Source of the DNA: a virus
Reading direction: 5' to 3' (one strand)
DNA: 64,000 bases
IMG/VR virus record: IMGVR_UViG_3300021962_000031
Part shown: piece after piece, positions 21,957-63,387 of the stretch
Layout of the letters: the number at the start of each line of letters is the position of its first letter
Position numbering within the stretch: the first letter of the stretch is position 1
Made by a program: the position numbers and the translations under genes
Notes under the pieces: model-generated
Told to the model about the DNA's origin: nothing
Database searches by the model: none
The model's input: only the letters and a program-made list of their open reading frames with translations

Positions 21957-22994
21957 ATGCCTACGCCCTTGCTTACTATCGGAATGGCGACCTTTGACGA
22001 CTTCGACGGCGTCTACTTCACCCTCCAATCTCTTAAGGCTTACCACGACCTGACCGATGTTGAGCTATTGGTCGTTGACAACAAACCCGAAGGCTGCACT
22101 CACACCAAGACTATCTGCGAGTGGACGAAGACACGCTACCTGCACAGGGGCCACGCTACCGGCACCTCCCTCCCCCGCCAACTTGTCTTTGAAGAAGCAC
22201 AAGGGGAATGGGTCATGTGCATGGACAGCCATGTCTTGCTCACGCAAGGGGTTGTGTCCAAGGTTAAGGAGTTCATTCGTTCTGGCAAAGCCGAACGCAA
22301 GAACCTTTACCAGGGACCGCTTCTTTACGATGACCATATCAACATGGCGACGCACTTCGACCCAGTCTGGCGCGACTCCATGTATGGCACCTGGGCGACT
22401 GATGAGCGAGTCAAGCTTGGGGAACCGTTCGACATCCCCATGCAAGGCCTCGGCCAATTCATGATGTGTAAGGAAGAATGGCCAGGCTTCAATACCCTGT
22501 TCAGAGGCTTCGGTGGTGAAGAGGGGTATATTCACTCTAAGGTGCGCAAATTCGGTGGCAGGGCGATGTGTGTCCCTTGGATGACCTGGCTGCACCGGTT
22601 CGGTCGGCCCAAGGGTGTTCCCTATCGCCTCGTTCTTGAAGATCGCGTGTTCAACTACATCCTAGGTCGCCGCGAGATCGGCCTGCCTTATCAAGATGTG
22701 ATTGAACACTTCACGGGCAGGATGCCCGAAAATAATCTCAAGGCGACAGTCGCCGAGGCCGAAGCACTAGATTTTAACGAGGGCGTTTTCCCTGAGCGTT
22801 TCCGCAGTCTGCAAAAAATCGTTCGGACTCAACCGTGCGTTTATCGCACGGAATTACCCATCGACCGGGCTGACTGCAACTGCCCCTTCAAATTCGTTTA
22901 TGGCTGCGAGAAGCACGAGAAGTGCCGACCGTTCACCGACAACGGAGACGGTGTTCGCTGCTGCCAAAAATGCGAAGACTACGAGGAGGTCTGA
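21957..22994 (+). CDS. GT-A glycosyltransferase, polypeptide GalNAc/GlcNAc-transferase-like (GT27/GT60-like), with Cys-rich C-terminus
   Basis: LLVVDN, MDSHV (DxH), PMQGLGQF, GFGGEE, GGRAMCVP..LHRF motifs; RBS ggagg. Confidence 0.8.
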   Translation: MPTPLLTIGMATFDDFDGVYFTLQSLKAYHDLTDVELLVVDNKPEGCTHTKTICEWTKTRYLHRGHATGTSLPRQLVFEEAQGEWVMCMDSHVLLTQGVVSKVKEFIRSGKAERKNLYQGPLLYDDHINMATHFDPVWRDSMYGTWATDERVKLGEPFDIPMQGLGQFMMCKEEWPGFNTLFRGFGGEEGYIHSKVRKFGGRAMCVPWMTWLHRFGRPKGVPYRLVLEDRVFNYILGRREIGLPYQDVIEHFTGRMPENNLKATVAEAEALDFNEGVFPERFRSLQKIVRTQPCVYRTELPIDRADCNCPFKFVYGCEKHEKCRPFTDNGDGVRCCQKCEDYEEV

Positions 22995-28297: not shown

Positions 28298-29091
28298 GTC
28301 AGCATGGCCCTCATGAACGCCTGGGCAGAATCGACCGGCGTGTACTGAATAAACAAATCAACCAACTCACCAAAGACTTCTTGTCGTTCAAATTCGCTGC
28401 TAAGAACGAGGTCTTCGACAAGCTTTATGTAAGTTTCAGGAAGGTTGCGAGAAGTCGGAAGGGAATTGTCTCCGGCAACTACAGGGATAGTCCCCACTCG
28501 CAATGTCTCGTAAATTTTACGAACATCACTCGCCTCATCGGCAGACATGGCATGTACATAGGTCGAGGCCAAGGCACGCGCTCTTTCCTCGGTTGTCAGA
28601 GAGCCAGCGTAGTATGGAACAGGCCACGGCTTGTCGGCGTAGATACGGGCCACAAAACTCTCATTCTCAAACAGAGGGATAAAAAAAGCATCGTAGCCCG
28701 GACGGTATTGATCCAGAAAAATCACATCGGTCGCCAAATCGTTGCAATAAAGCGACTTGCCATCCAAACACATGAAAGGCCAACGGATGACAGGCAGCCC
28801 CTGCTCGTTGTCGTCGGTGGTGAACAGAAATGCCCCTGGCGGCAGCTTGTCCAAGAAAGTGAAACTATCCTGCCACAAGGCCAGTCGGCACTTGCCCTGA
28901 TTGCGAAGCAGGGCGGGTGTGATGGCGGATGTCGGGCCGATAAAAAGGTCGGGTTTCTGTCTGGCAAAGGCCTCGTGGGTGGGCATCTTTGACGGAACCC
29001 ACAGGGCCGCATCATGTCCAAGCTGAACAAAACCGCGTGCCAAGGCGCCTGTCCCCACACCATTGTCATCATTCTCAATGAGAATATTCAT
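28291..29091 (-). CDS. GT-B glycosyltransferase-like protein (CgeB-like)
   Basis: LARGFVQLGHD, KPDLFIG, RKIYETLRVG motifs. Confidence 0.5.
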   Translation of the reverse strand: MNILIENDDNGVGTGALARGFVQLGHDAALWVPSKMPTHEAFARQKPDLFIGPTSAITPALLRNQGKCRLALWQDSFTFLDKLPPGAFLFTTDDNEQGLPVIRWPFMCLDGKSLYCNDLATDVIFLDQYRPGYDAFFIPLFENESFVARIYADKPWPVPYYAGSLTTEERARALASTYVHAMSADEASDVRKIYETLRVGTIPVVAGDNSLPTSRNLPETYIKLVEDLVLSSEFERQEVFGELVDLFIQYTPVDSAQAFMRAMLTC

Positions 29092-29861
29092 GCTGTCACG
29101 CCCTTGCGCCTTAGCTTGGTAACCAAACTTTTAGCTCGTTCAATATCCTGAGTGCTGTCAATTTCTACGAGATTGGTCTTGTCTGGGTAAGCCGGCACAA
29201 TGATGCCATGCGCGTCAATAATTCCGTTAAGAACCTCATAGGCAAACCAACGGGCACTCTGATTGCGCGAAGCAACTCGCCGATACAAGTCAAGTTCCTT
29301 GTCTGCCAGTTGCACGGCCTGACCCCATTTGGGCCAGACCCCATAGCTGAAATGGCAGACTCGTTCTTGGTCGATGTTGCATCCGACTTCGCCAGAACGA
29401 TGATTCTGATTCTCGTCAATAATTGCGGCAGAACCTTCTTCTGGTAGGCATTCAAGAAAATCGGGTCCAAAAACCAAATCTCCACACATCAAAATCACCT
29501 TCTTGGCGTTTGCGTGATTTACGCCAACAAGGAGAGAGCGGGCCACATTGGTATCTTCGTGGGATGAGTTTTCTACCCAGCCAACATCCTTTGGCAAAAC
29601 CTTTATCACCCGATCCTTCTGGTAGCCAACAACCACGATGATTTCAGCTTTTGGCAATGCCTTGCGGGCGAACACAATCTGGCGACTGAGAACGGTCTCG
29701 CCGCCGCCGATTTCGATAAGGGCTTTTGGGCCTCGGGCCTTCATGCGGCGCCCAGCCCCAGCCGCGCTAATTACGACAGCAAGGTCTGGCAATGGCGATC
29801 CCTCATGATTTTTACCTGTTTGGCCATGAACTCGGATGGTGTGCGCCTGCTGAGCTGCCAT
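29088..29861 (-). CDS. Nucleotidyltransferase (LicC / sugar-phosphate NTP-transferase family)
   Basis: ISAAGAGRRMK..GPKAL, VVVGYQ, GDLVF, VEIDSTQD motifs. Confidence 0.85.
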   Translation of the reverse strand: MAAQQAHTIRVHGQTGKNHEGSPLPDLAVVISAAGAGRRMKARGPKALIEIGGGETVLSRQIVFARKALPKAEIIVVVGYQKDRVIKVLPKDVGWVENSSHEDTNVARSLLVGVNHANAKKVILMCGDLVFGPDFLECLPEEGSAAIIDENQNHRSGEVGCNIDQERVCHFSYGVWPKWGQAVQLADKELDLYRRVASRNQSARWFAYEVLNGIIDAHGIIVPAYPDKTNLVEIDSTQDIERAKSLVTKLRRKGVTA

Positions 29862-31307: not shown

Positions 31308-31756
31308 TGACGGATGGCCTCCACATAGCTGGTGAAATCGCTGACATAGGAACGGACGGGGGTCATGCCCAGGCTACTGAGCATGGTGCGAAGCTGGGGC
31401 AGAGTTCCTGCGCTGGTGCGCCTTTGTCCGCCGCCACCGCCGTAAATGAGTTGTATAAAATCAGAAATGTCGCCCAGAGTGACTTTCCGACAAACCTCAA
31501 CAATCTCGCGAGTGCCGACAACCATCACGCCGCCTCTCGCTAGTCTGGAGACCCAGTGGGTCAACAGCTTGGTGCGGAACTCAAAAGGGTAATAATCCAA
31601 GACATCGGTCGCTTGGATTTCCAGGGCCTCGCCCTCTTCGGCAAGCTGACTAAGATCGGCAGGATTGCCGGGTGATTCTTGACTGGCTGGATCGACCTCG
31701 ATAAAGCCGGGTAGGCCGAGCTTTTGGCCTCCCACAGTCATGCGGATTTTGACCAT
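31304..31756 (-). CDS. Class I SAM methyltransferase-like protein, degenerate
   Basis: EIQATDVLDY...LLTHWVSRLARGG pattern; poor Gly-rich motif I. Confidence 0.55.
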   Translation of the reverse strand: MVKIRMTVGGQKLGLPGFIEVDPASQESPGNPADLSQLAEEGEALEIQATDVLDYYPFEFRTKLLTHWVSRLARGGVMVVGTREIVEVCRKVTLGDISDFIQLIYGGGGGQRRTSAGTLPQLRTMLSSLGMTPVRSYVSDFTSYVEAIRQ

Positions 31757-32769
31757 TGCTTCCTCCACCACGGTGCGCGGGCGGCAACTTGCAATGCCTG
31801 TCCCCACTCCCGAACAAAACGCTCCAAACCAAACCGCTGACGGGCCTTTTCCGCAGCAGCTCTACCGATTACCTCGCAGTAGGCGGGATTGCCCAAAAGC
31901 CTTTTGACAATAGCGTTCATTTCCTCGGGAGTGTCCACAAGGAAACCGGTCACGCCATGTTCAATGGCTTCGGTCACCGCCCCAGCCCGGTAGGAAACAA
32001 CACAACAGCCAGAGGCCATGGCCTCAAGGACGGTGGTCGGGAAGGTGGAGCGGGTGGCCGTGTTCAGGAATATCAGACTTGTGCGGTATGCCTCGGTCAG
32101 CTCTTGCACGTTGGCGGCAGCTTTGGACAGCCCGGGCGTATCGCCCAGAACACGAGTGGAAAGATCGGCAGTAGCCAGTTTCCAGAATGAGAAACCGCAA
32201 GCGGCGTCTCGCTTGATCCAGTCGTTGACAACGCTCAGGCAGATCGGTTCACGCGGCACCCAAGGCTCATGCGGACAAAACTGATTCGTGTCAATGGCGT
32301 TGTATATGACACTAGTGTCGGGAAGGACCTGACTGTCCCATTCCAGTCGCTGATTGTCGGTGATGTAGACATTGTGGTCACCACGCCGAGAAGACACTGC
32401 ACGCCGGGTATTTTCGTCCCAGCCTTCTTCGGGCAAGGTGTGTTCCAAACGCAAGAGCGGCACATTGTAGAAGGTCGCAGCCTGTAAAGCCCGGTCAAAC
32501 TGGCTATGGTGTTGACATAAGACGAGGTCCAAATCAATTTCTACGGGAATGGCTGGCGACGACGGATGGAAGGGGAGCAGCACATGATTGTCCGGCATGG
32601 CGGCGTAGTGATGCACCCAGGGCTTGGCGTACTGGTCGTTCCACAACAAAAAAGTAGCGTTTATATCAGCCCAGGCACTCTGAAACCGTTCGTGCGTGGT
32701 AAAGGTCAGGACATTGACCCTCTCCGGCGAACGAACGGCGCTATTCAGAATGCTGGCTATGTTGGGCAT
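31738..32769 (-). CDS. GT4 glycosyltransferase
   Basis: IYNAIDTNQF, FPTTVLEAMASGCCVV, HGVTGFLV. Confidence 0.9.
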   Translation of the reverse strand: MPNIASILNSAVRSPERVNVLTFTTHERFQSAWADINATFLLWNDQYAKPWVHHYAAMPDNHVLLPFHPSSPAIPVEIDLDLVLCQHHSQFDRALQAATFYNVPLLRLEHTLPEEGWDENTRRAVSSRRGDHNVYITDNQRLEWDSQVLPDTSVIYNAIDTNQFCPHEPWVPREPICLSVVNDWIKRDAACGFSFWKLATADLSTRVLGDTPGLSKAAANVQELTEAYRTSLIFLNTATRSTFPTTVLEAMASGCCVVSYRAGAVTEAIEHGVTGFLVDTPEEMNAIVKRLLGNPAYCEVIGRAAAEKARQRFGLERFVREWGQALQVAARAPWWRKQWSKSA

Positions 32770-32834
32770 AACAGTATCCGTTAATAGCGGCCGAAGCGAC
32801 CGCTGCTAACGATCTTACCCGGGAAGAGGGAGGC

Positions 32835-33578
32835 TTAGTCTCCCAAACGCTCAAGGATATGGCGAATTAAGCCATGGCGCTGAACGTCTTCTGGCCCCAG
32901 AGTGACCTTGGCGATGTCAGGATGACCCAACTTTTCCCACACCCAGATGAGCGGATTGCCTTCGCTGTGGGGCAAGTCTGTCTGGGTAACGTCTCCGCAA
33001 ACAATGACCTTGGAGTTCTCGCCGAATCGGGTCAAAAACATCTTCATCTGTCGGCGGGTTACATTCTGAGCCTCGTCCAGAATGATCACCGAGTTATGAA
33101 ATGTCCGACCGCGCATCGTTTCCAGGGGGACCACTTCAATGGTCTCTTTGTTGCGACAGTGCTTAAGAAAGCCAGGGTCAAGAAAATCCCCGAAGGCATC
33201 AAACATGGGGGCCATGAAAGGATCGGTCTTTTCGCCCAAAGTTCCAGGCAGGGCGCCCAGTCTTTGACCACATTCCACGATGGGGCGGGTAAGAATAACC
33301 TTCTCAATCTTGTTTTCAGACAACCAGTTGGCGGCCAGACCGCAGGGGATATAGGTTTTGCCACATCCAGCTGGGCCGGTGCAGATTGTTAATGTGCAAG
33401 CCTCGATGTTGTTGATGTAGTTCTGTTGGTTGGGCGTCCGAGCCTTAATTTTTTTGGTGTTCTTCTTGGATACAGCCCGTTGTTCGACGTCGGCGTCTCG
33501 TGCTTCCTGCCAAGGAATCTGGTCTTCGCCATCGAAGTCCTCAAGGAAGTCCGTCCACAGCTTGTTTTTGCGTCGCAT
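32835..33578 (-). CDS. phoH: PhoH-family ATPase
   Basis: GPAGCGKT, LGALPG, MRGRTF, LDEAQN, GDVTQTD. Confidence 0.95.
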   Translation of the reverse strand: MRRKNKLWTDFLEDFDGEDQIPWQEARDADVEQRAVSKKNTKKIKARTPNQQNYINNIEACTLTICTGPAGCGKTYIPCGLAANWLSENKIEKVILTRPIVECGQRLGALPGTLGEKTDPFMAPMFDAFGDFLDPGFLKHCRNKETIEVVPLETMRGRTFHNSVIILDEAQNVTRRQMKMFLTRFGENSKVIVCGDVTQTDLPHSEGNPLIWVWEKLGHPDIAKVTLGPEDVQRHGLIRHILERLGD

Positions 33579-34668
33579 GGGTTAAAGCCTCCAGGAAGGT
33601 CTTGCCGACCTTCAGGGGGTTGAATTGGAACGCCACATCCAGACCCCGCGCCGCTTTTACCTGGCGAAGGTCGTCCTCCATGTAAGCCCTTCGCATCAGC
33701 CCAGCCATCTCCAAAGTGAACGGAACCTGCCAATACTCGTCGCCACGGTACAGTTCGGCAGGTTCGTCCTGCCCTCCCGTACAAGGCTCGTCGTAAGTTG
33801 GAATCAGATAACCGGTCTCCTCGGAGATATAGGACTGATATGTTCCGGTGTCGGGTACGATGGGGGTTTTGCCCATCGCCATAGCATCGAATGCGGGATA
33901 TGACCAAGCTTCGCCACAGGAAGCCTGGACAAAACAGTTGGCGTATGCGTGGAGGCCCATGAGTTCGTCCTCACTCAATCTTTCGGTGAGAACGACAACC
34001 TCCGGCAGATAGTGAAGCTTCATTCCGTTGGCGATTTCTTGCATCATCGCCTGGACGCGGTGTTGTTCACCGTTTGTCTTAATGATGAGGACTGTATTGT
34101 CGGTGGGTCGGAATGCGCTGAAATAACTTTTGATCAGACCGCCCAAGTTCTTGCGCCGAACATTTTCGCTAATCGTGTAGAAGATAAATTTGCCAGCCTT
34201 GACATAAGGCTGGAGAAAACTGGGGACTGTGTGGGTTTTCATGTAGCGGTCGGGATCGCTGGGCAAGGGCAGGCTAGCCACAGGGACTTTGACATTGCTG
34301 TTCTTACAGGCCTCGGTCGAGATACCGGGCGTGGTGACCACAAGGTCCATCTGATTCAAACGCAGGTCCCACCCCGCCGAATTAAAGCGGGAAGCCTCGT
34401 AATAAAAGTTGGCCACATTCAGACCCAGTCTGCGGTCGAACAAGGTGACTGACGGGAGGGTGTGCTGGATGACCACATCCCATTTGGTGGGCGGGTTTTT
34501 TTCTTCCAGTCGATAGATTCTTTCTGGGCAGGATTGTTGACCGCCATTGAAAGTGATTGGACGACAGACGACATTGGCCCCGGCTGTCTCCAAAGCAATG
34601 GCTGATTCGCAACAAGCTCTTGCGTAGCCTGTGCCGTCGTGAAAATTTCCCACATAGAGAATATTCAT
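33541..34668 (-). CDS. GT4 glycosyltransferase
   Basis: GTGYA, RRKNLGGLI, SCGEAWSYPAFDAMAMGK. Confidence 0.88.
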   Translation of the reverse strand: MNILYVGNFHDGTGYARACCESAIALETAGANVVCRPITFNGGQQSCPERIYRLEEKNPPTKWDVVIQHTLPSVTLFDRRLGLNVANFYYEASRFNSAGWDLRLNQMDLVVTTPGISTEACKNSNVKVPVASLPLPSDPDRYMKTHTVPSFLQPYVKAGKFIFYTISENVRRKNLGGLIKSYFSAFRPTDNTVLIIKTNGEQHRVQAMMQEIANGMKLHYLPEVVVLTERLSEDELMGLHAYANCFVQASCGEAWSYPAFDAMAMGKTPIVPDTGTYQSYISEETGYLIPTYDEPCTGGQDEPAELYRGDEYWQVPFTLEMAGLMRRAYMEDDLRQVKAARGLDVAFQFNPLKVGKTFLEALTHATQKQAVDGLP

Positions 34669-36263
34669 GACCGCTGAGCCTCCCAGAACTCCACACGCTC
34701 ACGCTCCGCACAAAGTTGCGCCCAGGCATGCTTCCGTTCGTAGCCGCCCAGTCTGCCGCCAGGCCCGAAGCCGGTAAAACGTCCGGGAGTGAAGGTGGTA
34801 TCGCAAAAAGTCCTTGAGAGGTCTCGGGTCATTCTCTGAGCCACAAAACCAGCCTGGGCCGAAGAAATACCCAGGGCTGACTGAAACGCCTCGTCAACCC
34901 ACTCTCTGTTAGTGAGATGATCAGGGGGCATTTGCAGAGGTGGCAATTTTCGTGCAGTATCTTGATATCTTTTTATAGGTGGTGAAAGTTTACTGATTGC
35001 ATTGTGCCAAATCCCACCCGCTAGATCATAGTCAAAAGTTTTGATGGCCAAATCTCGTTGCTTGGAGCCAATTGCTCTACGAGCAGCTGGAGGCAACAAA
35101 AGAAGGTTGTTCAAAATTGCGATAAGATCATCGTTTTTAGGTAGGGCCATAACTCGGCCCGTTTCCAGTTCGGTGAATGTGCGCTCGACCGAAATGGCTT
35201 GGGCATCCAAAGCGGACGCCACACTGGACATGGCAGTAAAATCGACCGAGGTCACCGGAACACCACAGGAGGCAGCTTCCACCTGGGGCATTCCAAATCC
35301 CTCGCAGACCGAGTATTGTACGAACACGTCCATGGATGAATACACCGGGCGCATGAACGCACGGGGCAGGCCAGCAGCCACGCCGGGAGTGGTTAATTCC
35401 CCACTAGCACAGAAGGGGCAGTACCCCGAAGGTAGCTGCCAAAGCAAGGCAGAGGCCCTGTCGCACTTCTTGCACGCAAAAGTAAACAGGGTTCTGTGGG
35501 CCACATTGTAGCGAAGAAGGTATTTAGGGATGTCCCACCCAACATCCGGCCATGCCGTGTGACAATATAGATACAATCGATTGGCAATATGGGCTGGTGC
35601 GGACAGCAAGAACTTCTCAAAAGTTTCAAATAAATCCGGCAACAATTTCCGGCCTTGGTTTCGCATGACCGTCCCAATAACTAGGGCATCCTGCGAGATG
35701 TTGAGGGCCTTTCGCGCCTCCTTTTGGTCAAGTGGATGAAACACATCCGGCTCAGCACCAGGAGAAGCAACCCCAAACAAATTAAGACCAGGAAACTTCT
35801 TCAGGACGTCAAAACCATACTGAGAGTAAGCGAGAATCGCATCGGCACGGTTGAGAATCGCAATCCATTCCTCATCTTGCGGCTCACCGTCTACTGGATG
35901 CATGAATACCCAACGGAAATAGTCGCGCAGGGGAGAATAGGCGATGAACGAATCCTGCCACGGATCACGCATGGAGATCACGACATCGGGCCGGAACTTC
36001 ACCACCGCTTCCTCAAAAGCCGTAGCTCCAAGAGCGGCGTTGGAGTTAATCAACGCAGACGATGGATAATCATCACCTCTGGTAGTCACAAAAAAGGCGG
36101 GCCAGGGAGACCCGGCCCGCCTTGGATCGTTTGGAGTGCCGTAACACGCCAATTCACCGATTTCGTGACCAACAGCTTTTAGTCTTCGGGCGATCTGTAG
36201 CGCATAAGTGGCGTAGCCGGTTTGCAGCCAAGTCGCCTCGCCAACTAGAAGGATGCGGGCCAT
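34665..36263 (-). CDS. GT4 glycosyltransferase with a zinc-ribbon insertion
   Basis: TGYA, RNQGRK, EGFGMPQVEAASCG; CKKC...CPFC insertion. Confidence 0.9.
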   Translation of the reverse strand: MARILLVGEATWLQTGYATYALQIARRLKAVGHEIGELACYGTPNDPRRAGSPWPAFFVTTRGDDYPSSALINSNAALGATAFEEAVVKFRPDVVISMRDPWQDSFIAYSPLRDYFRWVFMHPVDGEPQDEEWIAILNRADAILAYSQYGFDVLKKFPGLNLFGVASPGAEPDVFHPLDQKEARKALNISQDALVIGTVMRNQGRKLLPDLFETFEKFLLSAPAHIANRLYLYCHTAWPDVGWDIPKYLLRYNVAHRTLFTFACKKCDRASALLWQLPSGYCPFCASGELTTPGVAAGLPRAFMRPVYSSMDVFVQYSVCEGFGMPQVEAASCGVPVTSVDFTAMSSVASALDAQAISVERTFTELETGRVMALPKNDDLIAILNNLLLLPPAARRAIGSKQRDLAIKTFDYDLAGGIWHNAISKLSPPIKRYQDTARKLPPLQMPPDHLTNREWVDEAFQSALGISSAQAGFVAQRMTRDLSRTFCDTTFTPGRFTGFGPGGRLGGYERKHAWAQLCAERERVEFWEAQRS

Positions 36264-38985: not shown

Positions 38986-39275
38986 TCTCCACCCTCCACT
39001 TCCTCGACCCACAACCGGATTGATTCACCATCGTTGACGATTTCGTGTTTCAGTTCGCAAGTGGGCGATTCTCCGGCAGAGATGAAAGCATTGGTCATAT
39101 TGACCTCGCCGCCTGCCATGATCACCAAGGCCTTGATCATGTGGCCGAGTTCTTCGCCAAGCTTTTTCTTGCTTTCGGTCAATTCTGCCAAAGCATCTAA
39201 AAGCGCAAGATTATGCGCCACAACCCTTTGCGGAAAGTCCATTTCTTCTGACTCTTCTTCAAATTTGTCAAACAC
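38982..39275 (-). CDS. Small acidic hypothetical protein
   Basis: Overlaps both the dnaE-N stop and the exonuclease start. Confidence 0.6.
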   Translation of the reverse strand: MFDKFEEESEEMDFPQRVVAHNLALLDALAELTESKKKLGEELGHMIKALVIMAGGEVNMTNAFISAGESPTCELKHEIVNDGESIRLWVEEVEGGE

Positions 39276-41193: not shown

Positions 41194-41213
41194 CAATCCC
41201 CACCTTCCCCTGC

Positions 41214-47600: not shown

Positions 47601-48001
47601 TGCCGTAATTTCTCCTCCCACTCTTCTTCCGTCCCGTTATAAGCCAGTTCAATAACCTCAAGGCCATTTAGCTCACACCATTCAAGCTTCTTTTTGTCCC
47701 TTTGCTTGGACTGAAGAAATCCCATTGGCGTGCCGTGAAAATGGGCCACAAAACGATAATGTTGTTCGCCGTGAGCTTCTACTACCAGCTTCCGCAATGG
47801 CAGAAAAAAATCCACGCGCAAACCATCGGAACCAGGGAGACCGACCTCTTCCATGATGCGATCCACCGGATAGACTTTTCGCAAAACATTTCGGACTTTG
47901 GCATGCAGGCCAGAGCGGAGAGGGGCATCCTCCCCGCCTGTGTGCGAACGCCCGGAGAAGGACCATGTGTAGGTTCTTCCGTCTAGCCCTCTGACTTTCA
48001 T
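47597..48001 (-). CDS. Vsr/DUF559-like endonuclease
   Basis: LRVDFFLP..LVVEAHGEQHY...RDKKKLEWCELNG. Confidence 0.75.
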   Translation of the reverse strand: MKVRGLDGRTYTWSFSGRSHTGGEDAPLRSGLHAKVRNVLRKVYPVDRIMEEVGLPGSDGLRVDFFLPLRKLVVEAHGEQHYRFVAHFHGTPMGFLQSKQRDKKKLEWCELNGLEVIELAYNGTEEEWEEKLRQ

Positions 48002-52561: not shown

Positions 52562-52806
52562 CAGTAGTCCTCATCTTCCTCATCAAACTCAATATCGCTG
52601 TCGGCACAACCAATCGACCAGCGAGTCTCGGTCAGGCTGACAGCCCGAGGAGAAAGGCTTTCGCGCAACAAATTCCCGTTCAAATCGGCATACACTAGGA
52701 CTAGGCTGCCATCATCGGCGAAAGCCGTTATTGTCATGGGAGGAGAGCCGCTGTTCAGGCAGACTACATCCCCAATGTCAAATTCACCGTTGTCCCTCGA
52801 CATCAT
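52561..52806 (-). CDS. YodC/DUF2158-like small protein
   Basis: FDIGDVVCLNSGSPPMTI. Confidence 0.75.
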   Translation of the reverse strand: MMSRDNGEFDIGDVVCLNSGSPPMTITAFADDGSLVLVYADLNGNLLRESLSPRAVSLTETRWSIGCADSDIEFDEEDEDY

Positions 52807-53518
52807 TTTCCCCTCGCGTGCGCCAGAAAGTATGAAAATCAGCTGGGTCAGGCTCTTCGGCTACGGGAGGAGCCTGGGTGGTGGTTGGAGCGGTGGTAGT
52901 CGTAGGGCTTTCGGTGGTGGTTGACACGGAGGATTCCGTAGGAACAACCTGGACTTCCTTGCCGTTGACGCCGTCCAAAGGCTTGGTGGATACGATCTTG
53001 TAGGACAGATTGCTCAATCCGTCTTTGGAGCGATCATATCCAGAATTAAGTCGCTTGGTAGCTTTGAAGTATTCCTCGGATTCGTGTGAGTTTTCCGGGA
53101 AAGAAGCTTCGCGACGGAACATGAGGATGCGGGCTTTGTGGATGCGATTGTACAGGTCATGAACATGCACACAGGTGCCCGGATAACCGTTGGAAAACCC
53201 GTTGACCTCTTCAAAAATTTCCGAGGTCATCATTTGGATGTGTCGCATCTCAACGAAAGCATTTTCGGGAGAATAGTCGGCGTCTTCCACCGGGACATGG
53301 TCGGTGGGATGAAAGACATAATAAGCAGCATCGCTTACCTGATAACCGACATTTGAAAGCCATCCTTCATTGGTTGGACCTTCATCGCCCTGACGAACCA
53401 CGATAACCTCGTAGTTCAGACCAGGATTCTTGCGGTCAATCTGCTCTTTCAGGGCCTTGAGAAAACCCGAAAGGTCGTTGCGCAGACCGGAAGGAACAAT
53501 AATGGCAGTCTTGTGCAT
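52784..53518 (-). CDS. GT7 (beta-1,4-galactosyltransferase)-like protein with degenerate motifs and Thr-rich tail
   Basis: HKTAIIVP, YEVIVVRQ...NVGY, FEEVNGFSN.Y, DLYNRI, DGLSNLSY follow the GT7 motif order. Confidence 0.7.
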   Translation of the reverse strand: MHKTAIIVPSGLRNDLSGFLKALKEQIDRKNPGLNYEVIVVRQGDEGPTNEGWLSNVGYQVSDAAYYVFHPTDHVPVEDADYSPENAFVEMRHIQMMTSEIFEEVNGFSNGYPGTCVHVHDLYNRIHKARILMFRREASFPENSHESEEYFKATKRLNSGYDRSKDGLSNLSYKIVSTKPLDGVNGKEVQVVPTESSVSTTTESPTTTTAPTTTQAPPVAEEPDPADFHTFWRTRGENDVEGQR

Positions 53519-55968: not shown

Positions 55969-58900
55969 TTATCCGTGAAAAGCATTACCACAACCAGAAT
56001 TGTTGCAGTCATTGAGACTGGCGTAAGTCCCGCCCGGTCCATTTACTTCCTGACAATCGTAAATGGGATCAAAGCCAGCCATGCCGATTATTGCGCAGTT
56101 GTAAGTTTTAACTGCCGGAGTTCCTGTCGTACCTGGAGAAGTAGTTTCAGGAGTAGAAGTCGTGGCTGGGGGAGTTGTATTTGGGTTGGTTGTTGTGGTG
56201 GTTGTTGGCGCAATAGTCGTTGTGGTGGTAACCGGTTCTGGAGCCGGAGTCGTGGTTGTTGTGGTAGTAGTCGTCGTAGTTGTGGTAGTAGTCGTGGTGG
56301 TCGTAGTTGTGGTAGTAGTGGAAGTAGTCGTACTAGTAGTGGTTGTTGTCGGCTCAGCTGTCGTGGTAGTCGTAGTCGGCGCAGCCGTCGTAGTGGTCTG
56401 TCCACAGACTTCATCGCACGCATACATATTTTCATATGGACCAGAAATAATATTAAAATTTGATTCTGGAGGTGGCATTGAATTAAATGTCTGACATGTA
56501 TAAAAAGCACCCGAGGGGCCGGAGTAATAAGCGCAATACCAACCAGCCACAAACGGTTCAGCTGTTGTAGTAGTTGTGGTCGGCGCAGCCGTAGTAGTGG
56601 TCGTGGTTGTGGTTGTTGTCGGCGCAGCCGTCGTAGTTGTGGTGGTCGTGGTAGTAGTCGGTGGACAACCAGATTGCTGACATGCAATTTCATTAGGATA
56701 AGGACCCGACAATAAATCATAATAAGTGTTATTGTTATCAAACCTATCTCCAACTTCCGGTTGAGAGCTAAAATATAAGCATCCAAAACCAGAACCAACG
56801 ATACGTCCATACATAGAATAACAATAATGACCAGCCACAAATGGCGCAGCCGTCGTGGTTGTTGTCGTTGTCGTAGTCGTGGACACACAAGCCGCATTGC
56901 ACGCCGACAGCGAGGCGTAGGGGCCTGCATAACTCACCAGCGGATTTGCCGCAGGCCGACTGGCAATATAACTGCAACTCTTTGTGTTCTGGTAAGTGTC
57001 ATCTACGCAGTAGTAGCCAGCCACCCAAGGCTGTGCCGTGGTCGTGGGAGGGGGCGTGGTGTCATCAGGAGGATTTCCTCCCTTGCAGGTAGAACTATAA
57101 ATAATGGCTTGTCGTTCTGGATCATTGGCATCGTTTAGTGTGTGCAGGACGCCAGTAAAGGTTTCCATATGGCGCGTGGACGGATTGCTTCCACCCATCG
57201 CAAAAACAAGCTCTTGTGTCTGGGACTTGCTGGAATCGTAATAGTAATATTGGTCACCATAGTAAGTTGTGATCTCTCCAACACCCAGCTCATTCCCTCC
57301 AGAATGAGCCGTGGTGACTACGCCTTCAAGAAGACGCATGGCAAATTTGCTGTTGATTAAATGCTTTAGATTAAGATTGTAGGTCGCAGCCACATTAGCA
57401 TTGATTCCGCCGAATTTCCATCTGTTTGGCATGAACCAATTCTGTTCGTCGGCGCTCAACTCGTAATGGACTTCTGGAGTTTGGAGCTTGAGATGGATTG
57501 TCTTGGCAGAATCTACCGTGTTGGTGAATTTGAACACAATAATCTCACCAGCCGAGCAAGATAGCCTTTTTTGTTGCGAGTCAAAAAGATTTGTGTAAGT
57601 TACGCTCGGACTTCCAGAGGCATTCCAGTTCCGATAAATATCCAGGCGAATTCCACCGGTCTGGTATCCTCCCGCATTCAAATAATAATTAGCAGCATAT
57701 TGAGAACGGAATCGGAAATACTTGATTTCATTTGCGCCAATCAGATTATAAAGGATCGTATAGTTAGTCGGGTAAACAACCGGTTCGATAGCTGTGTCTG
57801 CCTCGTATTGATAAGCAGCCAAAGCCGAATCACCACCATCATCTCTATGTACCGACCAGACCGTCTTGGTGTCGTTGGTTGAAGTCAATACTTCCAGAGA
57901 CCAACTATCAATATTGACAACAAATGCCCCGCCCGTAGTGTTAGCGATCAGCCCCAAGGTCCATTCACCGTTGGGCGAATCGTTGAAAAGATCGGTCAAA
58001 TTAGTTCCGTAGGGACTAGCTGAATCATCCCAATAATTTTGAGACTGGTTGTTATTGGGGTTGGGTCGGAAAGAACCAGAGGCGCCAAAAGTTAGAACAG
58101 GGTCGGCACTGTTGTTGGTTATCGTGTAATTCTGACCAACACCATCAACAGGAACAGATAGTTGGCCAGCAATCAGCACATCCTTACCGGCTGGAGACCG
58201 AAGGATCAACACAGTATTGCTGGTGGTAGCCGTGGCGGCAAGATTGTACAGTCTGAGGGTCAACCCCGAAATAACTCCGGCCATTCCAGAGAAAGTCAGT
58301 TTGCCGCGCCGCAAAGCACTTCCTGTCGATTGAGGAGGTCCGAAATAATAAGTAACATTGTCAATAGTGGTTTCACTTAACAGCATCTGAACTTCTGGAA
58401 CTTCAGATGGCCAGGCTGGCGGTGGTGGCAGGGTCGCCGGGTCCATATTCAATCGCACATACATGTTGGGCTGGGCACATTCCGTGCAAGTGCCATTGTA
58501 AATAAAAGCAGCATTTTCCCCCTCAAACGGGTGAATGGCACAATCATAGCTAAACGGAACATTGTCATTTAGTGTCACAGTAAGAGTCACATCCCCACCA
58601 TAAAAACCATCAGCGACATTGCCGCTGGCGCCGTTTGTTGTCGCTTTGACCAGCCGACTAAAACCCTGACTATCAAAAACTCGGAATGGGTGGGCTGATG
58701 TATTTTGAAGGTGAAACTTATAAGTTTTGTTGGCTACCCATTTTGGGTTCTCGGGAGTGATCTCAAACCAATTCGTGTTATTGCTACTAAATTCAAATCG
58801 ATAGGAGCCATTATTGGCGTCCACGGCACGCACATAGGTTTCTTCGGGCAAGCAATTTCCTGCGACAACAGGAGAAACAGTCGTGGTCGTTGTCGTGGTC

Positions 58901-60006
58901 GGGCTAGCAGTAGTGGTCGTTGTTGTCGTACCAATAATGGGCGTGGCAGTTGTCGTGGTTGTCGTGGTGGTTGATGTGGTCGTGCTGGTTGTAGTCGTGG
59001 TGGTGGTTGTGGTCGTGGTTGTGCAACATGCCCCTAGTACGCGGTAGCCAGCCGCCACGGCATCGTACACAAGGGTGACACCCCCCAAGGGGTAGACCGG
59101 ATAATCGTCGAGATCAAGAACAAGCAGCTTGCTTCCGGCAGGAGTCAAGCCTGAATTGTGCTTGAGGTAGAAGGTATCGGTCTCGCTGACATTCAGCACA
59201 TAGACGGTCTCACCGTCGGCGATCTTCTCAACTCCATTGATCTCAAAGCCATTGATGGGCGGGTCAACCCTAACGATGGTTTTTCCGTATCTCATCAACT
59301 CATTAGTGCTGAGACCAGACAGGGCGGGGGTGTGACTAGACAAGGCCACCGCCGAGTTGGCCAGCATTTGGTAGCTGCCGACATGTCGCCATGCAGTAGA
59401 ATGTTCGCTCACCAAAACGCCGTCTACGCGGACAAGGCTATATCCTACCGGCCTGCCCGCATCTCTATCCCAGACGACCTTTTGGAGGGCAACTGAATTG
59501 GTGTTGTCTCGATAAGCAAATACATCAACACACTTACCAGCAGCTTCTGTTGCAGAGACCGAAGGTGTTGGGTCGATAGTGAATTTGCGCCAGCGATTTT
59601 CTGTGGTGTCCCAGAGTGCAATGTTATCTCCTTGCAATGGGGCCAGGTAAACTGTCCCGGAACCCGCCACCTCTGTGTCGGTCGCCGAGAAAGATAAGGC
59701 GGCGTTAGCCACTCCGTTGTTGTCGAGGGTATCCAGCAAGCCGTCTCTGGTTACCGTGTGGGCAATGGGATCGCCGGAATAATGAAGGACGGCAGATGTA
59801 CCCTCCCGACCGCGCAGCACCGTCAGGGTGTTCGTTTCCGCATCGACAGCGGTTACCCGCATAACTTCTTGGCCGCAGGTAACCTCAAATGGGGCAGGGG
59901 GAAATTTCAAGATGTTAACAACTGTAATTTCAGTGTCGGTCGAACTAATCGGCCCAGCAAGGAAGGTGACGGCTTGATTGGAAAAGCGGTGTAGTTGCCC
60001 GGCCAT
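55969..60006 (-). CDS. Modular fibre/adhesin-like protein with mucin-like poly-Thr linkers (1345 aa)
   Basis: Virion-anchor-like N-terminus, long Thr tracts, cupredoxin-like and P-domain-like modules, four Cys-rich repeats. Confidence 0.7.
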   Translation of the reverse strand: MAGQLHRFSNQAVTFLAGPISSTDTEITVVNILKFPPAPFEVTCGQEVMRVTAVDAETNTLTVLRGREGTSAVLHYSGDPIAHTVTRDGLLDTLDNNGVANAALSFSATDTEVAGSGTVYLAPLQGDNIALWDTTENRWRKFTIDPTPSVSATEAAGKCVDVFAYRDNTNSVALQKVVWDRDAGRPVGYSLVRVDGVLVSEHSTAWRHVGSYQMLANSAVALSSHTPALSGLSTNELMRYGKTIVRVDPPINGFEINGVEKIADGETVYVLNVSETDTFYLKHNSGLTPAGSKLLVLDLDDYPVYPLGGVTLVYDAVAAGYRVLGACCTTTTTTTTTTTTSTTTSTTTTTTTTATPIIGTTTTTTTASPTTTTTTTVSPVVAGNCLPEETYVRAVDANNGSYRFEFSSNNTNWFEITPENPKWVANKTYKFHLQNTSAHPFRVFDSQGFSRLVKATTNGASGNVADGFYGGDVTLTVTLNDNVPFSYDCAIHPFEGENAAFIYNGTCTECAQPNMYVRLNMDPATLPPPPAWPSEVPEVQMLLSETTIDNVTYYFGPPQSTGSALRRGKLTFSGMAGVISGLTLRLYNLAATATTSNTVLILRSPAGKDVLIAGQLSVPVDGVGQNYTITNNSADPVLTFGASGSFRPNPNNNQSQNYWDDSASPYGTNLTDLFNDSPNGEWTLGLIANTTGGAFVVNIDSWSLEVLTSTNDTKTVWSVHRDDGGDSALAAYQYEADTAIEPVVYPTNYTILYNLIGANEIKYFRFRSQYAANYYLNAGGYQTGGIRLDIYRNWNASGSPSVTYTNLFDSQQKRLSCSAGEIIVFKFTNTVDSAKTIHLKLQTPEVHYELSADEQNWFMPNRWKFGGINANVAATYNLNLKHLINSKFAMRLLEGVVTTAHSGGNELGVGEITTYYGDQYYYYDSSKSQTQELVFAMGGSNPSTRHMETFTGVLHTLNDANDPERQAIIYSSTCKGGNPPDDTTPPPTTTAQPWVAGYYCVDDTYQNTKSCSYIASRPAANPLVSYAGPYASLSACNAACVSTTTTTTTTTTAAPFVAGHYCYSMYGRIVGSGFGCLYFSSQPEVGDRFDNNNTYYDLLSGPYPNEIACQQSGCPPTTTTTTTTTTAAPTTTTTTTTTTAAPTTTTTTAEPFVAGWYCAYYSGPSGAFYTCQTFNSMPPPESNFNIISGPYENMYACDEVCGQTTTTAAPTTTTTTAEPTTTTTSTTTSTTTTTTTTTTTTTTTTTTTTTTTTPAPEPVTTTTTIAPTTTTTTNPNTTPPATTSTPETTSPGTTGTPAVKTYNCAIIGMAGFDPIYDCQEVNGPGGTYASLNDCNNSGCGNAFHG
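56130..57062 (-). repeat. Poly-Thr tracts alternating with Cys-rich repeats
   Basis: ACN codon runs; recurring (W/F)VAGxYC...GPY...AC...C units. Confidence 0.9.
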
Positions 60007-60007
60007 T

Positions 60008-61093
60008 TTAGTTGCCCTGGTAAAGAATTAGATCAGCTTGCCCGTCGGCGTAAGCCAGTAAATTGCCCAGCCCGTCCTCCAATGCGTTCTGAACGAGGTC
60101 TGGATCGTTATTGCGTGGGGAGCGAACAAAACAATTGTTGACAATACGCCAGGCTCTGCTCACCACATCGTAAACGCACACGACCCCACCCCCAGGCGGC
60201 ACCGTCAGGTCGCCCTTGCTTGGGAGTAGGAACTTCTCGTTGGTCAACGCCGACGCAGAGGAGTGTTTCAGCAACACCGCTTGCGAAGATGAAATGTTGC
60301 TCAGGATAACCGTCTTGCCGTCACGGGCAGATTGCAGGCCATGAATGATCACGCCAGCCACGGTGGGGTTAAGGCGGACTACCTTAAAACCCTCATGTCG
60401 CACGGTGGGGTTGTTAGTAGCGGCCAAACTAACCCGGTAGGCTCCCGGGGTAAATAGACTGCCCTGTCGTTGGATTGTGCCAACATATCGTCTAGGGACA
60501 ATGTTGAAATTGTCTGTTCTTATTTTGACTCCGTCTTTCAAGGCCATGGAAGGTCGCGTAAGAGTCGGAGACCAGACTGCCATGAAAAACAAGGTTTCCT
60601 GCATGGATTCGTTCCAATGGGCGAACAAATCCGCACATTCCCCGTCATTCAAAATAGGTGGAAGAGTTTCGACCCCAACCGGGAAACGTCGCCATTCATT
60701 AGCCATCGGGTCGATCAGGAAGATTCCGTTGCCTTGGACAGGCTCGACCTTAATGGAGGTAGCCGGGACAGGACGGACAGAAGCATACCCCTTGTCATCG
60801 GAAAGGGTCAAAAGGGCTTTTTTGGTTAAGACTGGGATTACTGGGCGACCCTGGAGATGTTTAGTCGCCGCAGTAGATTCTTGGCCGCGTGAAACGGTCA
60901 GCAAAGCATCAGATAATTGCAGTCGAATTTGTATGGCTCGGACAGTCAGAATTTCCGAGTCAATAACGATGTCGAACGGGGTGTTTTGCGGAAAAGTTGC
61001 GGAATAATTAACGACCAGCTGAGTTGAGGCTGTATCGACCGTCTCTTTCAGAGTCGTTACAGCCCCACCAAACCGTCGAAAATTATCCGCCAT
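60008..61093 (-). CDS. Virion protein paralogous to the N-terminus of the 1345-aa fibre
   Basis: Shared motifs FP..PF...E...V, LTV.RG.E.T.A..H, P.QG..I.L.D...N.WR.F, LKH.S, GGV..VYD. Confidence 0.7.
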   Translation of the reverse strand: MADNFRRFGGAVTTLKETVDTASTQLVVNYSATFPQNTPFDIVIDSEILTVRAIQIRLQLSDALLTVSRGQESTAATKHLQGRPVIPVLTKKALLTLSDDKGYASVRPVPATSIKVEPVQGNGIFLIDPMANEWRRFPVGVETLPPILNDGECADLFAHWNESMQETLFFMAVWSPTLTRPSMALKDGVKIRTDNFNIVPRRYVGTIQRQGSLFTPGAYRVSLAATNNPTVRHEGFKVVRLNPTVAGVIIHGLQSARDGKTVILSNISSSQAVLLKHSSASALTNEKFLLPSKGDLTVPPGGGVVCVYDVVSRAWRIVNNCFVRSPRNNDPDLVQNALEDGLGNLLAYADGQADLILYQGN

Positions 61094-61436
61094 CGTCGAA
61101 CCGCCCCTCGGCAAAGGCTAATCGGAGGGCCTCGGTCGCCTGCTGCGCCTTTTCTTCGGAAAAACCGGCCCGGATCAACTTCTTATACACCTTGTGGTGG
61201 GCGTACATCCGGGTGACAGGGCCATTGCCGTGCGCTAGCCCTCGAAGGGCAGAACGGGCTTTTTTGCATTCCCAAAGCAATCGGAGTGCCTGAATTCCAA
61301 TGGAGATGATCATGAGAATCGTGAATGGGTCAAAACCCACCAGATTCTCTTCCAAATACCCTTGGAGGATTGGATATTGCCCGCTCACGGCAGGCTTAAT
61401 TACGGATTCGTCAGGATTGTGATTTTCTTCGGTCAT
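61083..61436 (-). CDS. Small membrane protein
   Basis: One hydrophobic segment, FDPFTILMIISIGIQAL. Confidence 0.55.
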   Translation of the reverse strand: MTEENHNPDESVIKPAVSGQYPILQGYLEENLVGFDPFTILMIISIGIQALRLLWECKKARSALRGLAHGNGPVTRMYAHHKVYKKLIRAGFSEEKAQQATEALRLAFAEGRFDDGG

Positions 61437-61632
61437 TTTTCATCCCCGTATAGGTTCTTCGCCACCAAACCTTGAGTTTGGAGTCCCAAAACCAAAGTTC
61501 AAGATTGGCTGGGTTCTGAGCAAGAGACGAACCCCAACCAGCTTGCCATTCAGATGACGGAACCAGATTGAAATCTTCTTTGGGCTGATCGGATTGACCG
61601 AGAAGCGCCATGCTCAAAAACAAATCTTTCAT
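61411..61632 (-). CDS. Small hypothetical protein
   Basis: ATGA coupling to the protease gene. Confidence 0.45.
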   Translation of the reverse strand: MKDLFLSMALLGQSDQPKEDFNLVPSSEWQAGWGSSLAQNPANLELWFWDSKLKVWWRRTYTGMKNDRRKSQS

Positions 61633-62564
61633 TTGCCGACCAAATCAAAGAGGTGCATGGGTATGTCCTGGCTGGGGAAGCCGTTGAACTGGCTGATCAG
61701 GAAGGTGTCTCCCTGGCCAATCATGCGCTCAATCGTCTTCCGCTTGACCTTCAGGGTGCCGCGGGGCATCTCCTCGCCCGTGCCGGGGTTCTTGACCACG
61801 CCGTGGACATCGCCCCAGGAATTGGCAATGTAGACATGTTCCTGGTCGAGCAGGCAATAATCGTAGATGCACATTTGATGCGCCCAAGACCCGCTGGGGT
61901 CGTGATAGCCATCGCCCCCCGGAGTCATCTCAAATCCTTGGTTGCTGGCGACTGTGCAAGAATAGCCATTAGCCAATCCCGCAACCAGATCGTCCCAGCT
62001 TTTCACCTTGGCCGCAGACTGTACGAGATACTTCTTGCCAACATCGATGAACTTGGTATCGGGACCTTTGGCTCCCCAACGACGAGCAATGTCCTTGCCA
62101 TAGGGTGGACAGTCATCCTTGTTGGCGAAGATGGAGCCAAATTTCATCACGCCTGCCGCAGCCCACGAACCGATGCTGCCATCACCACCCAGCCTGCCGC
62201 CGCCGATCTGCACGCGGCTGATTCCGTAGATATAGGGGGCGAAGACTGGATGAAACTCCTCGGCGTCCTTACGCATGAGGATGTCCACACAGGAGAGGTA
62301 CTCGATGGCGTGCTTCATCCCCCACGCGACACAGTCCCCAATCAGTTGGACGCTCAGCTTGCCACCGATGTCCCGTCCCAGAACCTTGCGGGCCACTTGG
62401 TAGTTCTGGGAGAACTTGGGGGGATCGGCCACCACATCGCCAACGATCTGGAAGTCGAGGAAGTTGTAGCTGTCCTTGATCAGGGTGAACTGTTCGGCAG
62501 CTACCTCTTCACCCAGCCAGCCCGACTCGTTGCCGTCAATGTAGCCCTTGATGATATCGTCCAT
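61629..62564 (-). CDS. Papain-like (C1-type) cysteine peptidase
   Basis: Q..GDCVAWG, WAHQMC, IANSWG catalytic motifs. Confidence 0.85.
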   Translation of the reverse strand: MDDIIKGYIDGNESGWLGEEVAAEQFTLIKDSYNFLDFQIVGDVVADPPKFSQNYQVARKVLGRDIGGKLSVQLIGDCVAWGMKHAIEYLSCVDILMRKDAEEFHPVFAPYIYGISRVQIGGGRLGGDGSIGSWAAAGVMKFGSIFANKDDCPPYGKDIARRWGAKGPDTKFIDVGKKYLVQSAAKVKSWDDLVAGLANGYSCTVASNQGFEMTPGGDGYHDPSGSWAHQMCIYDYCLLDQEHVYIANSWGDVHGVVKNPGTGEEMPRGTLKVKRKTIERMIGQGDTFLISQFNGFPSQDIPMHLFDLVGK

Positions 62565-62571
62565 TATGACC

Positions 62572-63387
62572 TCACTTAACGGCTTTCAGCCCAATGGCAA
62601 TCTCCCGCCAAGCGTCTGCGTAGTCCTCGGCGGTTGAGATTTTCTTAGACTTGTACATTTGATACAGAGACTTCTGCAATTCAGACCCAAACTCTTCTAA
62701 GGGGTTGGGATCGACATTGGCAGAGGCAAGGGCGGCGTTATTGGCTTGCTTGGTCGCCTCTAGGATTTGATCGCCAGTCTTGTAGGCGCCAGCAGCAACG
62801 GCACTCGCAATAGACTCAAAGGATTCAGCAAGGGCATTTGCAGCTTTAGCCCTAGGTTCTTTGACTTTGCCAACGAAGTGTTGATAGGTGATTTTGGCCA
62901 GTCCGAACCGCCCGTCCGGCAGCGTGGGGGTGGGGTTCGGAGCGGGACCCGGGCCTGGTGGGGTGGGTTGGGGATTTGGACCCGGGTTTGGTTCGGACTG
63001 GCCAATTTGTAGCTCAGCAGTTAAGAGTTGACTCCTAACTTGAGCATCTTTGATTTTGTCCCCTTCCTTATCAATATATAGATAAGAGACGGCCGCAATG
63101 ACAAGCATCTTTTTCGACTGAACACCAGCACCGAAGAAAATGCCGTCTCCTTGTTGCCGAACACGCTTTGGCGTATTGCCCTCAAAGACCTTCCAGTCCA
63201 CGCTGACAGAGGCAAGGTTTGGCGACCGATTCTCCATCGGAGAAAGAGCCAAATCAACCAATTCGCCCAGGGGTACGGGCTTCTCAGCCCCCACAATCGA
63301 CTGCTTGGGCAAAGGATATTTATCTTGACCAAAAGCAGTCAGGGCGGACAAAGCAAGGCAAGAGAGAGCAAAAAACGCGCTGCGCAC
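62572..63387 (-). CDS. Secreted protein with a Pro-rich linker
   Basis: Signal peptide MRSAFFALSCLALSALTAFG; PNPGPNPQPTPPGPGP linker. Confidence 0.7.
   Translation of the reverse strand: MRSAFFALSCLALSALTAFGQDKYPLPKQSIVGAEKPVPLGELVDLALSPMENRSPNLASVSVDWKVFEGNTPKRVRQQGDGIFFGAGVQSKKMLVIAAVSYLYIDKEGDKIKDAQVRSQLLTAELQIGQSEPNPGPNPQPTPPGPGPAPNPTPTLPDGRFGLAKITYQHFVGKVKEPRAKAANALAESFESIASAVAAGAYKTGDQILEATKQANNAALASANVDPNPLEEFGSELQKSLYQMYKSKKISTAEDYADAWREIAIGLKAVK

Follow-up and report, generated by a model that had tools for sequence, protein, structure and literature searches.

What would a bacteriophage do with a protein in which tracts of nearly pure threonine alternate with small cysteine-rich modules? 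This question is raised by one gene in a stretch of 64,000 nucleotides (here called the window) from IMG/VR record IMGVR_UViG_3300021962_000031, an uncultured freshwater (lake) phage whose 149,106-bp genome is a complete record bearing terminal repeats. The open reading frame (ORF) at 55969-60006 on the minus strand is open throughout, translates into 1345 residues without an internal stop, and is virtually certain to be a real gene. We found that its product is a protein of the tail-fiber class with a mucin-like distal part, and we regard it as fairly probable that the threonine tracts of this appendage are glycosylated by glycosyltransferases (GTs) of the phage itself. The pattern of threonine runs and cysteine modules lies far beyond chance, and in the whole 149-kb genome runs of at least 5 threonines occur in just one further ORF. 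Neither the nucleotide sequence of the gene nor its translation matched anything in 50,697 GenBank phage records. The whole 1345-residue protein had no significant Pfam or PHROG match either, and PHROG matches appeared only when its N-terminal module (N-module) was scanned alone. The gene and its parts are as follows:

55969..60006, minus strand: fiber gene (P0001), 1345 residues plus stop codon, supported by the open frame and by full-length orthologs
59023..60006, minus strand: N-module, residues 1 to 328, ending in an invariant Cys-Cys pair; probable virion anchor
58858..59022, minus strand: linker 1, residues 329 to 383, a Thr-rich stalk from N-module to body, at the same position in every ortholog
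57067..58857, minus strand: central body, residues 384 to 980, with six invariant cysteines; 45 to 73% identity among orthologs
57034..57066, minus strand: short Thr/Pro linker, residues 981 to 991, as read from the sequence
56887..57033, minus strand: Cys module M1, residues 992 to 1040, PWVAGYYC...GPY...CxxxC
56845..56886, minus strand: linker 2, residues 1041 to 1054 (14 residues), between M1 and M2
56665..56844, minus strand: Cys module M2, residues 1055 to 1114, which aligns with M1, M3, and M4
56557..56664, minus strand: linker 3, residues 1115 to 1150 (36 residues), built on a 39-nt unit in 2.3 copies
56404..56556, minus strand: Cys module M3, residues 1151 to 1201, placed by alignment with the other modules
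56125..56403, minus strand: linker 4, residues 1202 to 1294 (93 residues), the longest stalk, which holds a run of 24 threonines
55972..56124, minus strand: terminal Cys module M4, residues 1295 to 1345, placed by alignment with the other modules

The threonine runs lie, to within a few bases, where the initial annotation had placed them (58879-59022, 56851-56880, 56563-56658, and 56188-56397, counting runs of at least 4). Threonine makes up 17.5% of the protein, and 120 of the 236 threonines fall into 14 runs of 4 to 24 residues, the longest of which spans residues 1230 to 1253. In the pooled linkers (194 residues), we counted 136 threonines (70%), 18 prolines (9%), 15 alanines (8%), 9 serines (5%), and no lysine or arginine. 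The Thr:Ser ratio in the linkers is 15:1, compared with 100 threonines and 89 serines in the remainder of the protein. The long Pro/Thr/Ser-rich tracts of repeat units by which mucin domains are recognized are present in this protein.

Mixed codons in the runs had been taken as a sign of selection on the protein rather than slippage. The mixture is even (ACC 34, ACA 29, ACG 29, and ACT 28 times), and the retention of threonine, described below, argues in the same direction. Repeat expansion has nevertheless occurred, and to this extent the proposal has to be amended: Tandem Repeats Finder detected multi-codon periods of 9, 12, 21, and 39 nt in the tracts, the last corresponding to a 13-residue unit of ten threonines plus AAP. 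Such periods indicate that the tracts lengthened through duplication of short units, which diverged afterward, and not through slippage of single codons. Avoidance of identical adjacent threonine codons was also considered and was rejected, as 6 of the 23 neighboring pairs in the 24-threonine run are identical, which is the chance level.

A small set of viral contigs from freshwater (L004 to L010) carries orthologs, which also appear among database proteins (P0003, P0018, P0020, P0022, and P0024), and at least 6 IMG/VR contigs encode full-length ones. Comparing the window with L004 codon by codon, we counted 11 identical, 32 synonymous, and 11 nonsynonymous pairs in linker 1; the N-module gave 137, 149, and 41, and the body 194, 228, and 167, respectively. 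Threonine has thus been retained in orthologs while synonymous third positions are near saturation. Codon alignment inside a low-complexity tract is partly trivial, and the weight of this comparison rests on the kept composition and on the 15:1 ratio. Taken together, the retention of threonine and its excess over serine fit a Thr-directed transferase, or the stiffness conferred by a beta-branched residue, better than a mere flexible spacer.

The N-module, linker 1, the body, and M1 are common to the orthologs, apart from a variant (P0022) without M1. Past M1, orthologs differ in both the number (2 to 4) and the kind of modules: L009, L010, and P0024 carry other Cys/Trp-rich modules, L004 and L007 have unrelated-looking cassettes at the M2 position, and an M4-type terminal module also ends the proteins of L004, L005, L007, and P0003. 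The clearest case is the pair L005 and L007, whose DNA is 85 to 100% identical along the gene and 41 to 46% identical across module 2, with the break points inside Thr tracts. Modules are therefore swapped as cassettes at poly-Thr joints. Two further variants of the L007 type also involve these tracts. In P0022, M1 and M2 are deleted between two Thr tracts, and the body has an internal deletion as well. In P0021, a frameshift inside a Thr tract is followed by a His/Asp/Asn-rich reading. Either natural variation in the population or misassembly of low-complexity DNA could account for both. As the genome contains no reverse transcriptase, a diversity-generating retroelement was rejected as the origin of the differing modules; the variation thus comes from cassette exchange.

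The modules themselves are 50 to 60 residues long and share four invariant cysteines and one invariant tyrosine at 30 to 37% identity. The initial annotation had described three (W/F)VAGxYC...GPY...C...C units and a C-terminal variant, and these correspond to M1, M2, M3, and M4, respectively. Of the 26 cysteines of the protein, the N-module has 4, the body 6, and the modules together 16, so that each part holds an even number. M1 is the best conserved module (69 to 80% identity across orthologs), and AlphaFold2 folded it confidently from an 11-row alignment (mean pLDDT, 89.6) into three antiparallel strands followed by a C-terminal helix (beta-beta-beta-alpha). In this model, Cys 9 and Cys 20 sit on strands 1 and 2, and Cys 45 and Cys 49 are one helix turn apart, a predicted geometry that would suit two disulfides stapling the helix to the sheet.

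Searches with the modules pointed to no convincing relative. No Pfam family matched at an E value of up to 10, and the known small disulfide folds that we considered were the Kunitz, defensin-type cysteine-stabilized alpha-beta, three-finger, and CBM1 folds. The M1 model gave only weak, generic matches with Foldseek against the PDB (best E value, 3), with VIA-align against 48,161 chains (best Z score, 4.1, for the N-terminal domain of RNase H1 and for MbtH-like proteins, whose small topology is a common one), and against BFVD (best E value, 1.1). A module profile run against 1.84 billion representative proteins returned 3 matches only: a fragment of an ortholog, an unrelated protein of 602 residues, and one weak match. 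On the predicted fold and these searches, the 4-Cys module is a rare, undescribed small domain. Whether the modules are binding units we judge to be evenly balanced.

Outside the lineage, the 4-Cys module occurs only in the 602-residue protein (P0004), from high-GC DNA, which has it twice. Thr tracts are absent from P0004; a Cys-Cys pair directly precedes its first module, and a PKD-like stretch lies near its C terminus. A viral scan of its locus found nothing, and a genome scan gave only a spurious archaeal match.

The N-terminal part of the protein tells a different story from its mucin-like end. Residues 7 to 101 match PHROG tail-fiber families, foremost phrog_8469 (E value, 2.1e-7) and also phrog_9851, phrog_38058, phrog_30299, and phrog_1101; among members of the N-module alignment, phrog_9851 was matched at 8e-6 in one and phrog_38058 in 4 of 4. 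Some matches of this domain are to head-category families labeled "virion structural protein" (phrog_4406 and phrog_23837), but the majority, including the best ones, are to tail-fiber families. Residues 118 to 210 resemble a domain of fiber-like proteins in other viral contigs and in P0026, and residues 244 to 324 match a unit present twice in a 1389-residue protein that starts with an Mtd_N domain (profile E value, 3e-18). A profile of the N-module against PDB sequences gave nothing significant. Being a composite of fiber-protein parts, the N-module is best read as a virion anchor.

The N-module is also a full-length paralog (30% identity) of the product of the ORF directly upstream:

60008..61093, minus strand: paralog gene (P0002), 361 residues from MADNF, consisting of an N-module alone plus a 40-residue tail

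The TAA stop codon of this gene is separated by one base from the ATG of the fiber gene. The pair is conserved in relatives, and P0002 is a probable partner or base piece of the fiber. One relative, P0023, carries a paralog-type module at the C terminus of a repetitive protein.

The protein had been likened to eukaryotic mucins or glycosylated adhesins more than to a trimeric tail fiber. This holds for the outer 365 residues and the first spacer, in which uncharged Thr tracts lie between small Cys modules, but not for the N-terminal 328 residues, which are built of tail-fiber subdomains, nor for the some 600 further residues of folded body. The body is probably beta-rich. A single-sequence AlphaFold model of it was unusable (pLDDT, 34), and the proprotein convertase P-domain (PF01483) was rejected as an identification because it reached 12 bits against a cutoff of 21 (E value, 0.22) in 1 of 6 orthologs. 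Residues 385 to 510 look cupredoxin-like, by eye only. Given the sequence kinship of the N-module, we consider the protein likely to be a fiber-class component of the virion.

We then turn to the enzymes that could act on the threonine tracts. The phage encodes at least five GTs, which are listed here with a gene possibly involved in sugar activation:

21957..22994, plus strand: GT-A glycosyltransferase (Pfam Glycos_transf_2; E value, 6e-8), candidate initiating enzyme
52784..53518, minus strand: GT7-like (beta-1,4-galactosyltransferase-like) glycosyltransferase, matching Pfam Glyco_transf_7N and 7C and, in the PDB, B4GalT1 (E value, 2.4e-6)
31738-32769, minus strand: first GT-B (GT1/GT4-type) glycosyltransferase
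33541-34668, minus strand: second GT-B (GT1/GT4-type) glycosyltransferase
34665-36263, minus strand: third GT-B (GT1/GT4-type) glycosyltransferase
29088..29861, minus strand: nucleotidyltransferase (NTP_transf_3), possibly for sugar activation

The GT7-like gene is the third downstream of the fiber gene, after a ribonucleotide reductase (RNR) gene and an ORF of 175 residues. Its product has a Thr-rich C-terminal tail of its own (about 28 residues), as does the ortholog in L003, and may itself be a substrate or be tethered through this tail. The GT-A protein had no match among PDB sequences, and its gene is kept in all 3 long contigs that bear the fiber gene.

The strongest link between GTs and threonine came from distant homologs of the GT-A gene, which we examined in 18 viral loci (34 to 42% identity in the best segment). 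At 10 of the 18, the same strand carries, no more than 3 kb upstream, an ORF with at least 9 threonines in 12 residues, and 6 more have a (TTSS)n-type ORF about 1.5 to 2.2 kb upstream. In all, 16 of 18 loci have a Thr- or Thr/Ser-rich ORF within 3 kb upstream, with the GT downstream of it; the two others are cut by contig ends, which leaves less than 2 kb upstream. No comparable Thr-rich ORF was found in 250 kb of other loci, a control that is small and partly from one lineage; PhoH, used as a base-rate control query (its gene lies amid the three GT-B genes at 31738..36263), returned only the same phage lineage. The GT-A family is thus linked to Thr-rich genes across phages. In L025, L038, and L041, the Thr-rich neighbors are themselves Cys modules on Thr linkers. 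Phage-encoded GTs and Ser/Thr-rich regions on structural-type proteins, the combination known from mycobacteriophages, are both found here.

The protein at one of these loci deserves description. In L041, an unrelated viral contig of 26 kb, positions 7792-11935 encode a protein of 712 residues with many Cys/Trp modules on Thr linkers, directly followed by an ORF of 667 residues whose N-terminal half is the GT-A homolog. The genes there run from the major head protein through the tape measure protein and a gene for a 266-residue product to the Thr/Cys-module protein and then the GT, which puts the module protein at a tail-tip position. One of its module types (C.G.C.Y.WN...W...GC) recurs in the fiber orthologs of L009, L010, and P0024.

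The phage also has a second Thr-tract protein, encoded on the plus strand at genome positions 28515-29534, 7.5 to 8.5 kb before the window starts (L052:10537-11538). Its N-terminal four TTSGP repeats are followed by 18 threonines and then by a domain that, by eye, resembles a lectin or LamG-type jelly roll. The gene lies in the structural region after those of two giant proteins (1273 and 1409 residues), the first of which matches tail-fiber PHROGs.

Several points weigh against a tail-fiber appendage glycosylated by the phage. The fiber gene, on the minus strand, is about 35 kb from the plus-strand structural block and sits among genes for replication and nucleotide metabolism, with the RNR gene directly downstream. 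The central body had no significant match in Pfam, among PDB sequences (searched with a six-row profile), or in the ESM Atlas. As to the enzymes, the GT-A gene is 33 kb from the fiber gene in this lineage, the 16 positive loci reduce to some seven architectures and do not count as 16 independent events, and the control set for the association is as limited as stated above. Moreover, GTs of phages often modify DNA or host surface polysaccharide instead of protein. Finally, no phage-encoded Erv-type thiol oxidase or thioredoxin was found, so that the disulfides would have to form after release into oxic water.

The alternative that survives best accepts the same fiber but leaves its Thr tracts bare, as extended uncharged spacers and recombination joints, with the GTs acting on bases of the phage DNA, sugars of the host envelope, or virion proteins other than the fiber. 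The distance of GT-A from the fiber gene is in its favor, as is the location of the GT-B genes in a block with the nucleotidyltransferase and an aminoacyl-transferase-like gene, which could modify DNA; phage DNA bearing sugars is a well-documented phenomenon (e.g., PMC12838424). Cassette exchange at the joints would also give the tracts a role for which no sugar is needed. A plain spacer, however, would tolerate serine, glycine, asparagine, glutamine, and charged residues, and yet the linkers keep threonine 15:1 over serine in spite of synonymous turnover. Bare tracts would also leave aside the tie between the GT-A family and Thr- or Thr/Ser-rich neighbors at 16 of 18 distant loci, as well as the GT7-like enzyme with its Thr-rich tail three genes downstream of the fiber gene. 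We therefore consider bare tracts unlikely. The initial annotation had called the tracts the obvious substrate of the phage GTs; the comparison across loci gives this good support, tempered by the separation of GT-A from the fiber gene in this genome, and O-glycosylation of the Thr tracts by phage enzymes is in our view rather more probable than bare tracts.

A second alternative takes the protein out of the virion altogether and makes it a soluble or host-surface-bound product released at lysis, such as an aggregate adhesin, a decoy, or a coat of the infected cell. This would account for a gene that lies outside the structural block (and outside the tail/baseplate block), between lysis-cassette-like genes just upstream and the RNR gene. 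The three subdomains of the N-module are, however, common to tail-fiber-class proteins, the N terminus of the fiber protein has no signal peptide, the gene is paired with a short N-module paralog as expected of an assembly partner, and the analog in L041 occupies a tail-tip position after the tape measure gene, all of which makes a nonvirion protein improbable. Least likely is a head fiber or capsid decoration of the same chemistry, which would attach loosely to particles or host slime instead of recognizing a receptor: the head-category PHROG matches, the position of the gene outside the tail block, and a flexible bead-on-string shape suited to weak multivalent adhesion would agree with it, but most and the best matches of the N-terminal domain are to tail-fiber families, and the L041 analog is again at the tail tip.

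The lysis-cassette-like group comprises three genes upstream of the fiber pair (61083-63387, minus strand), none of which had a Pfam or PHROG match. The first encodes 271 residues, and its ortholog in L003 has a signal peptide and a Pro/Thr linker; the second encodes 311 residues with a Cys...His...Asn pattern reminiscent of papain-like peptidases; and the third encodes 117 residues with a hydrophobic helix. Two other features of the window lie further from the fiber gene. At 47998-50097 (minus strand), a RecA-like gene is split by a LAGLIDADG-type insertion, probably an intein. At 36710-38356 and 39268-41262 (minus strand), a DNA polymerase III alpha-type replicase is apparently encoded in two separate ORFs, with the PHP and NTPase part in one, the polymerase part in the other, and an ORF of 227 residues between them.

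Returning to a tail-fiber appendage glycosylated by the phage, we propose the following mechanism. Residues 1 to 328, of which the translationally coupled upstream gene encodes a second version, would fix the protein to the virion and would be followed by the folded region of 600 residues. The outer part would consist of four beta-beta-beta-alpha modules, each with two predicted disulfides, spaced by uncharged linkers of about 70% threonine; the spacers, 194 residues in total, could extend over roughly 50 to 60 nm. In the host cytoplasm, phage GTs would most likely O-glycosylate the Thr tracts and would thereby make them stalks that are stiff, hydrated, and resistant to proteases, like those of mucins. 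The disulfides would form only after lysis, in oxic water. The modules could then act as exchangeable binding units, with poly-Thr DNA providing the joints at which modules are swapped or lost.

How does such a protein compare with known systems? In mycobacteriophages (Che8, Corndog, and Myrna), virion proteins are O-glycosylated by GTs of phage origin (Freeman et al. 2023, Cell Host Microbe 31:1216, which is reference 80 of PMC12582341 and is described in PMC10568470). The likeness lies in the phage's own GTs, in Ser/Thr-bearing acceptor stretches, and in a modification expected in the host cytoplasm, ahead of assembly. The mycobacteriophage acceptors are reportedly short C-terminal extensions of capsid and tail-tube subunits, whereas the candidate acceptors here are near-pure Thr tracts of 14 to 93 residues that space folded modules in a fiber. 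Hosts and enzymes are also unrelated, and the present system is known from its sequence alone.

Animal mucins, which go with GT27 polypeptide GalNAc-transferases, resemble the protein in that Pro/Thr/Ser-rich repeat tracts alternate with small Cys-rich domains, threonine is strongly preferred over serine, and the tracts grow by duplication of repeat units. The enzymes are also reminiscent: a GT-A is the candidate for initiation, and another GT is GT7-like and related to B4GalT1. Unlike mucins, however, the phage protein has no signal peptide or secretory pathway, its Cys modules matched no Pfam family at an E value of up to 10, with CysD, vWF-type, and cystine knot domains included, and the PDB fold matches were weak and generic. 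The likeness is one of analogy and convergence.

With modular tail fibers and receptor-binding proteins of phages, the protein shares an N-terminal attachment-type domain and two common subdomains (phrog_8469, phrog_9851, phrog_38058; Mtd-type), as well as a distal part that varies between close relatives, like host-range determinants. Known fibers are continuous trimeric beta-structures or coiled shafts, whereas here beads of 50 to 60 residues are set on low-complexity spacers and the gene lies outside the tail block.

Two further systems are functional parallels only. In fungal and bacterial cellulases, O-glycosylated Thr/Pro linkers join carbohydrate-binding modules to catalytic domains, and glycosylation stiffens and protects the linker. 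The shared design is one of small disulfide-stabilized modules on extended Thr/Pro linkers; cellulases are, in contrast, secreted enzymes with one or two linkers, and as the phage modules had no Pfam match at the above threshold, no carbohydrate-binding module family was matched. In the serine-rich repeat adhesins (Fap1 and GspB, with GtfA/GtfB), long repeats of hydroxy amino acids are glycosylated in the cytoplasm by dedicated GTs, and the stalk presents a binding region. The repeats of the phage protein are of threonine instead of serine, its modules are spread along the stalk, and it has neither a signal peptide nor a C-terminal cell wall anchor motif.

Phage fibers and the glycosylation of mycobacteriophage virions are already known, and the fiber described here is a variant within these kinds. 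Our literature searches found no description of poly-Thr phage fibers. What the present analysis contributes is a new, predicted module fold, selection for threonine at the codon level, clean exchange of cassettes at poly-Thr joints, and a link between GT-A and Thr-rich genes. It is conceivable, and we put this forward tentatively, that several tailed-phage lineages run a cytoplasmic mucin-type O-glycosylation of their own, build bottle-brush fibers, and use poly-Thr DNA as the joint for exchanging binding modules of an undescribed, disulfide-stapled beta-beta-beta-alpha family; the window would then be one well-resolved example.

Should the stalks be glycosylated, mucin-like glycoproteins would be produced by phages in the absence of any secretory pathway, and glycosylation of phage virions would extend well past the short acceptor tails of mycobacteriophages. 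The modules would represent a new family of small protein folds, and the GTs would be Thr-directed enzymes of bacterial viruses, possibly useful for glyco-engineering. Overall, the fiber would then embody a new design of host-recognition appendage, in which separate binding beads are carried on stiff, sugar-coated spacers and can be swapped at these spacers.

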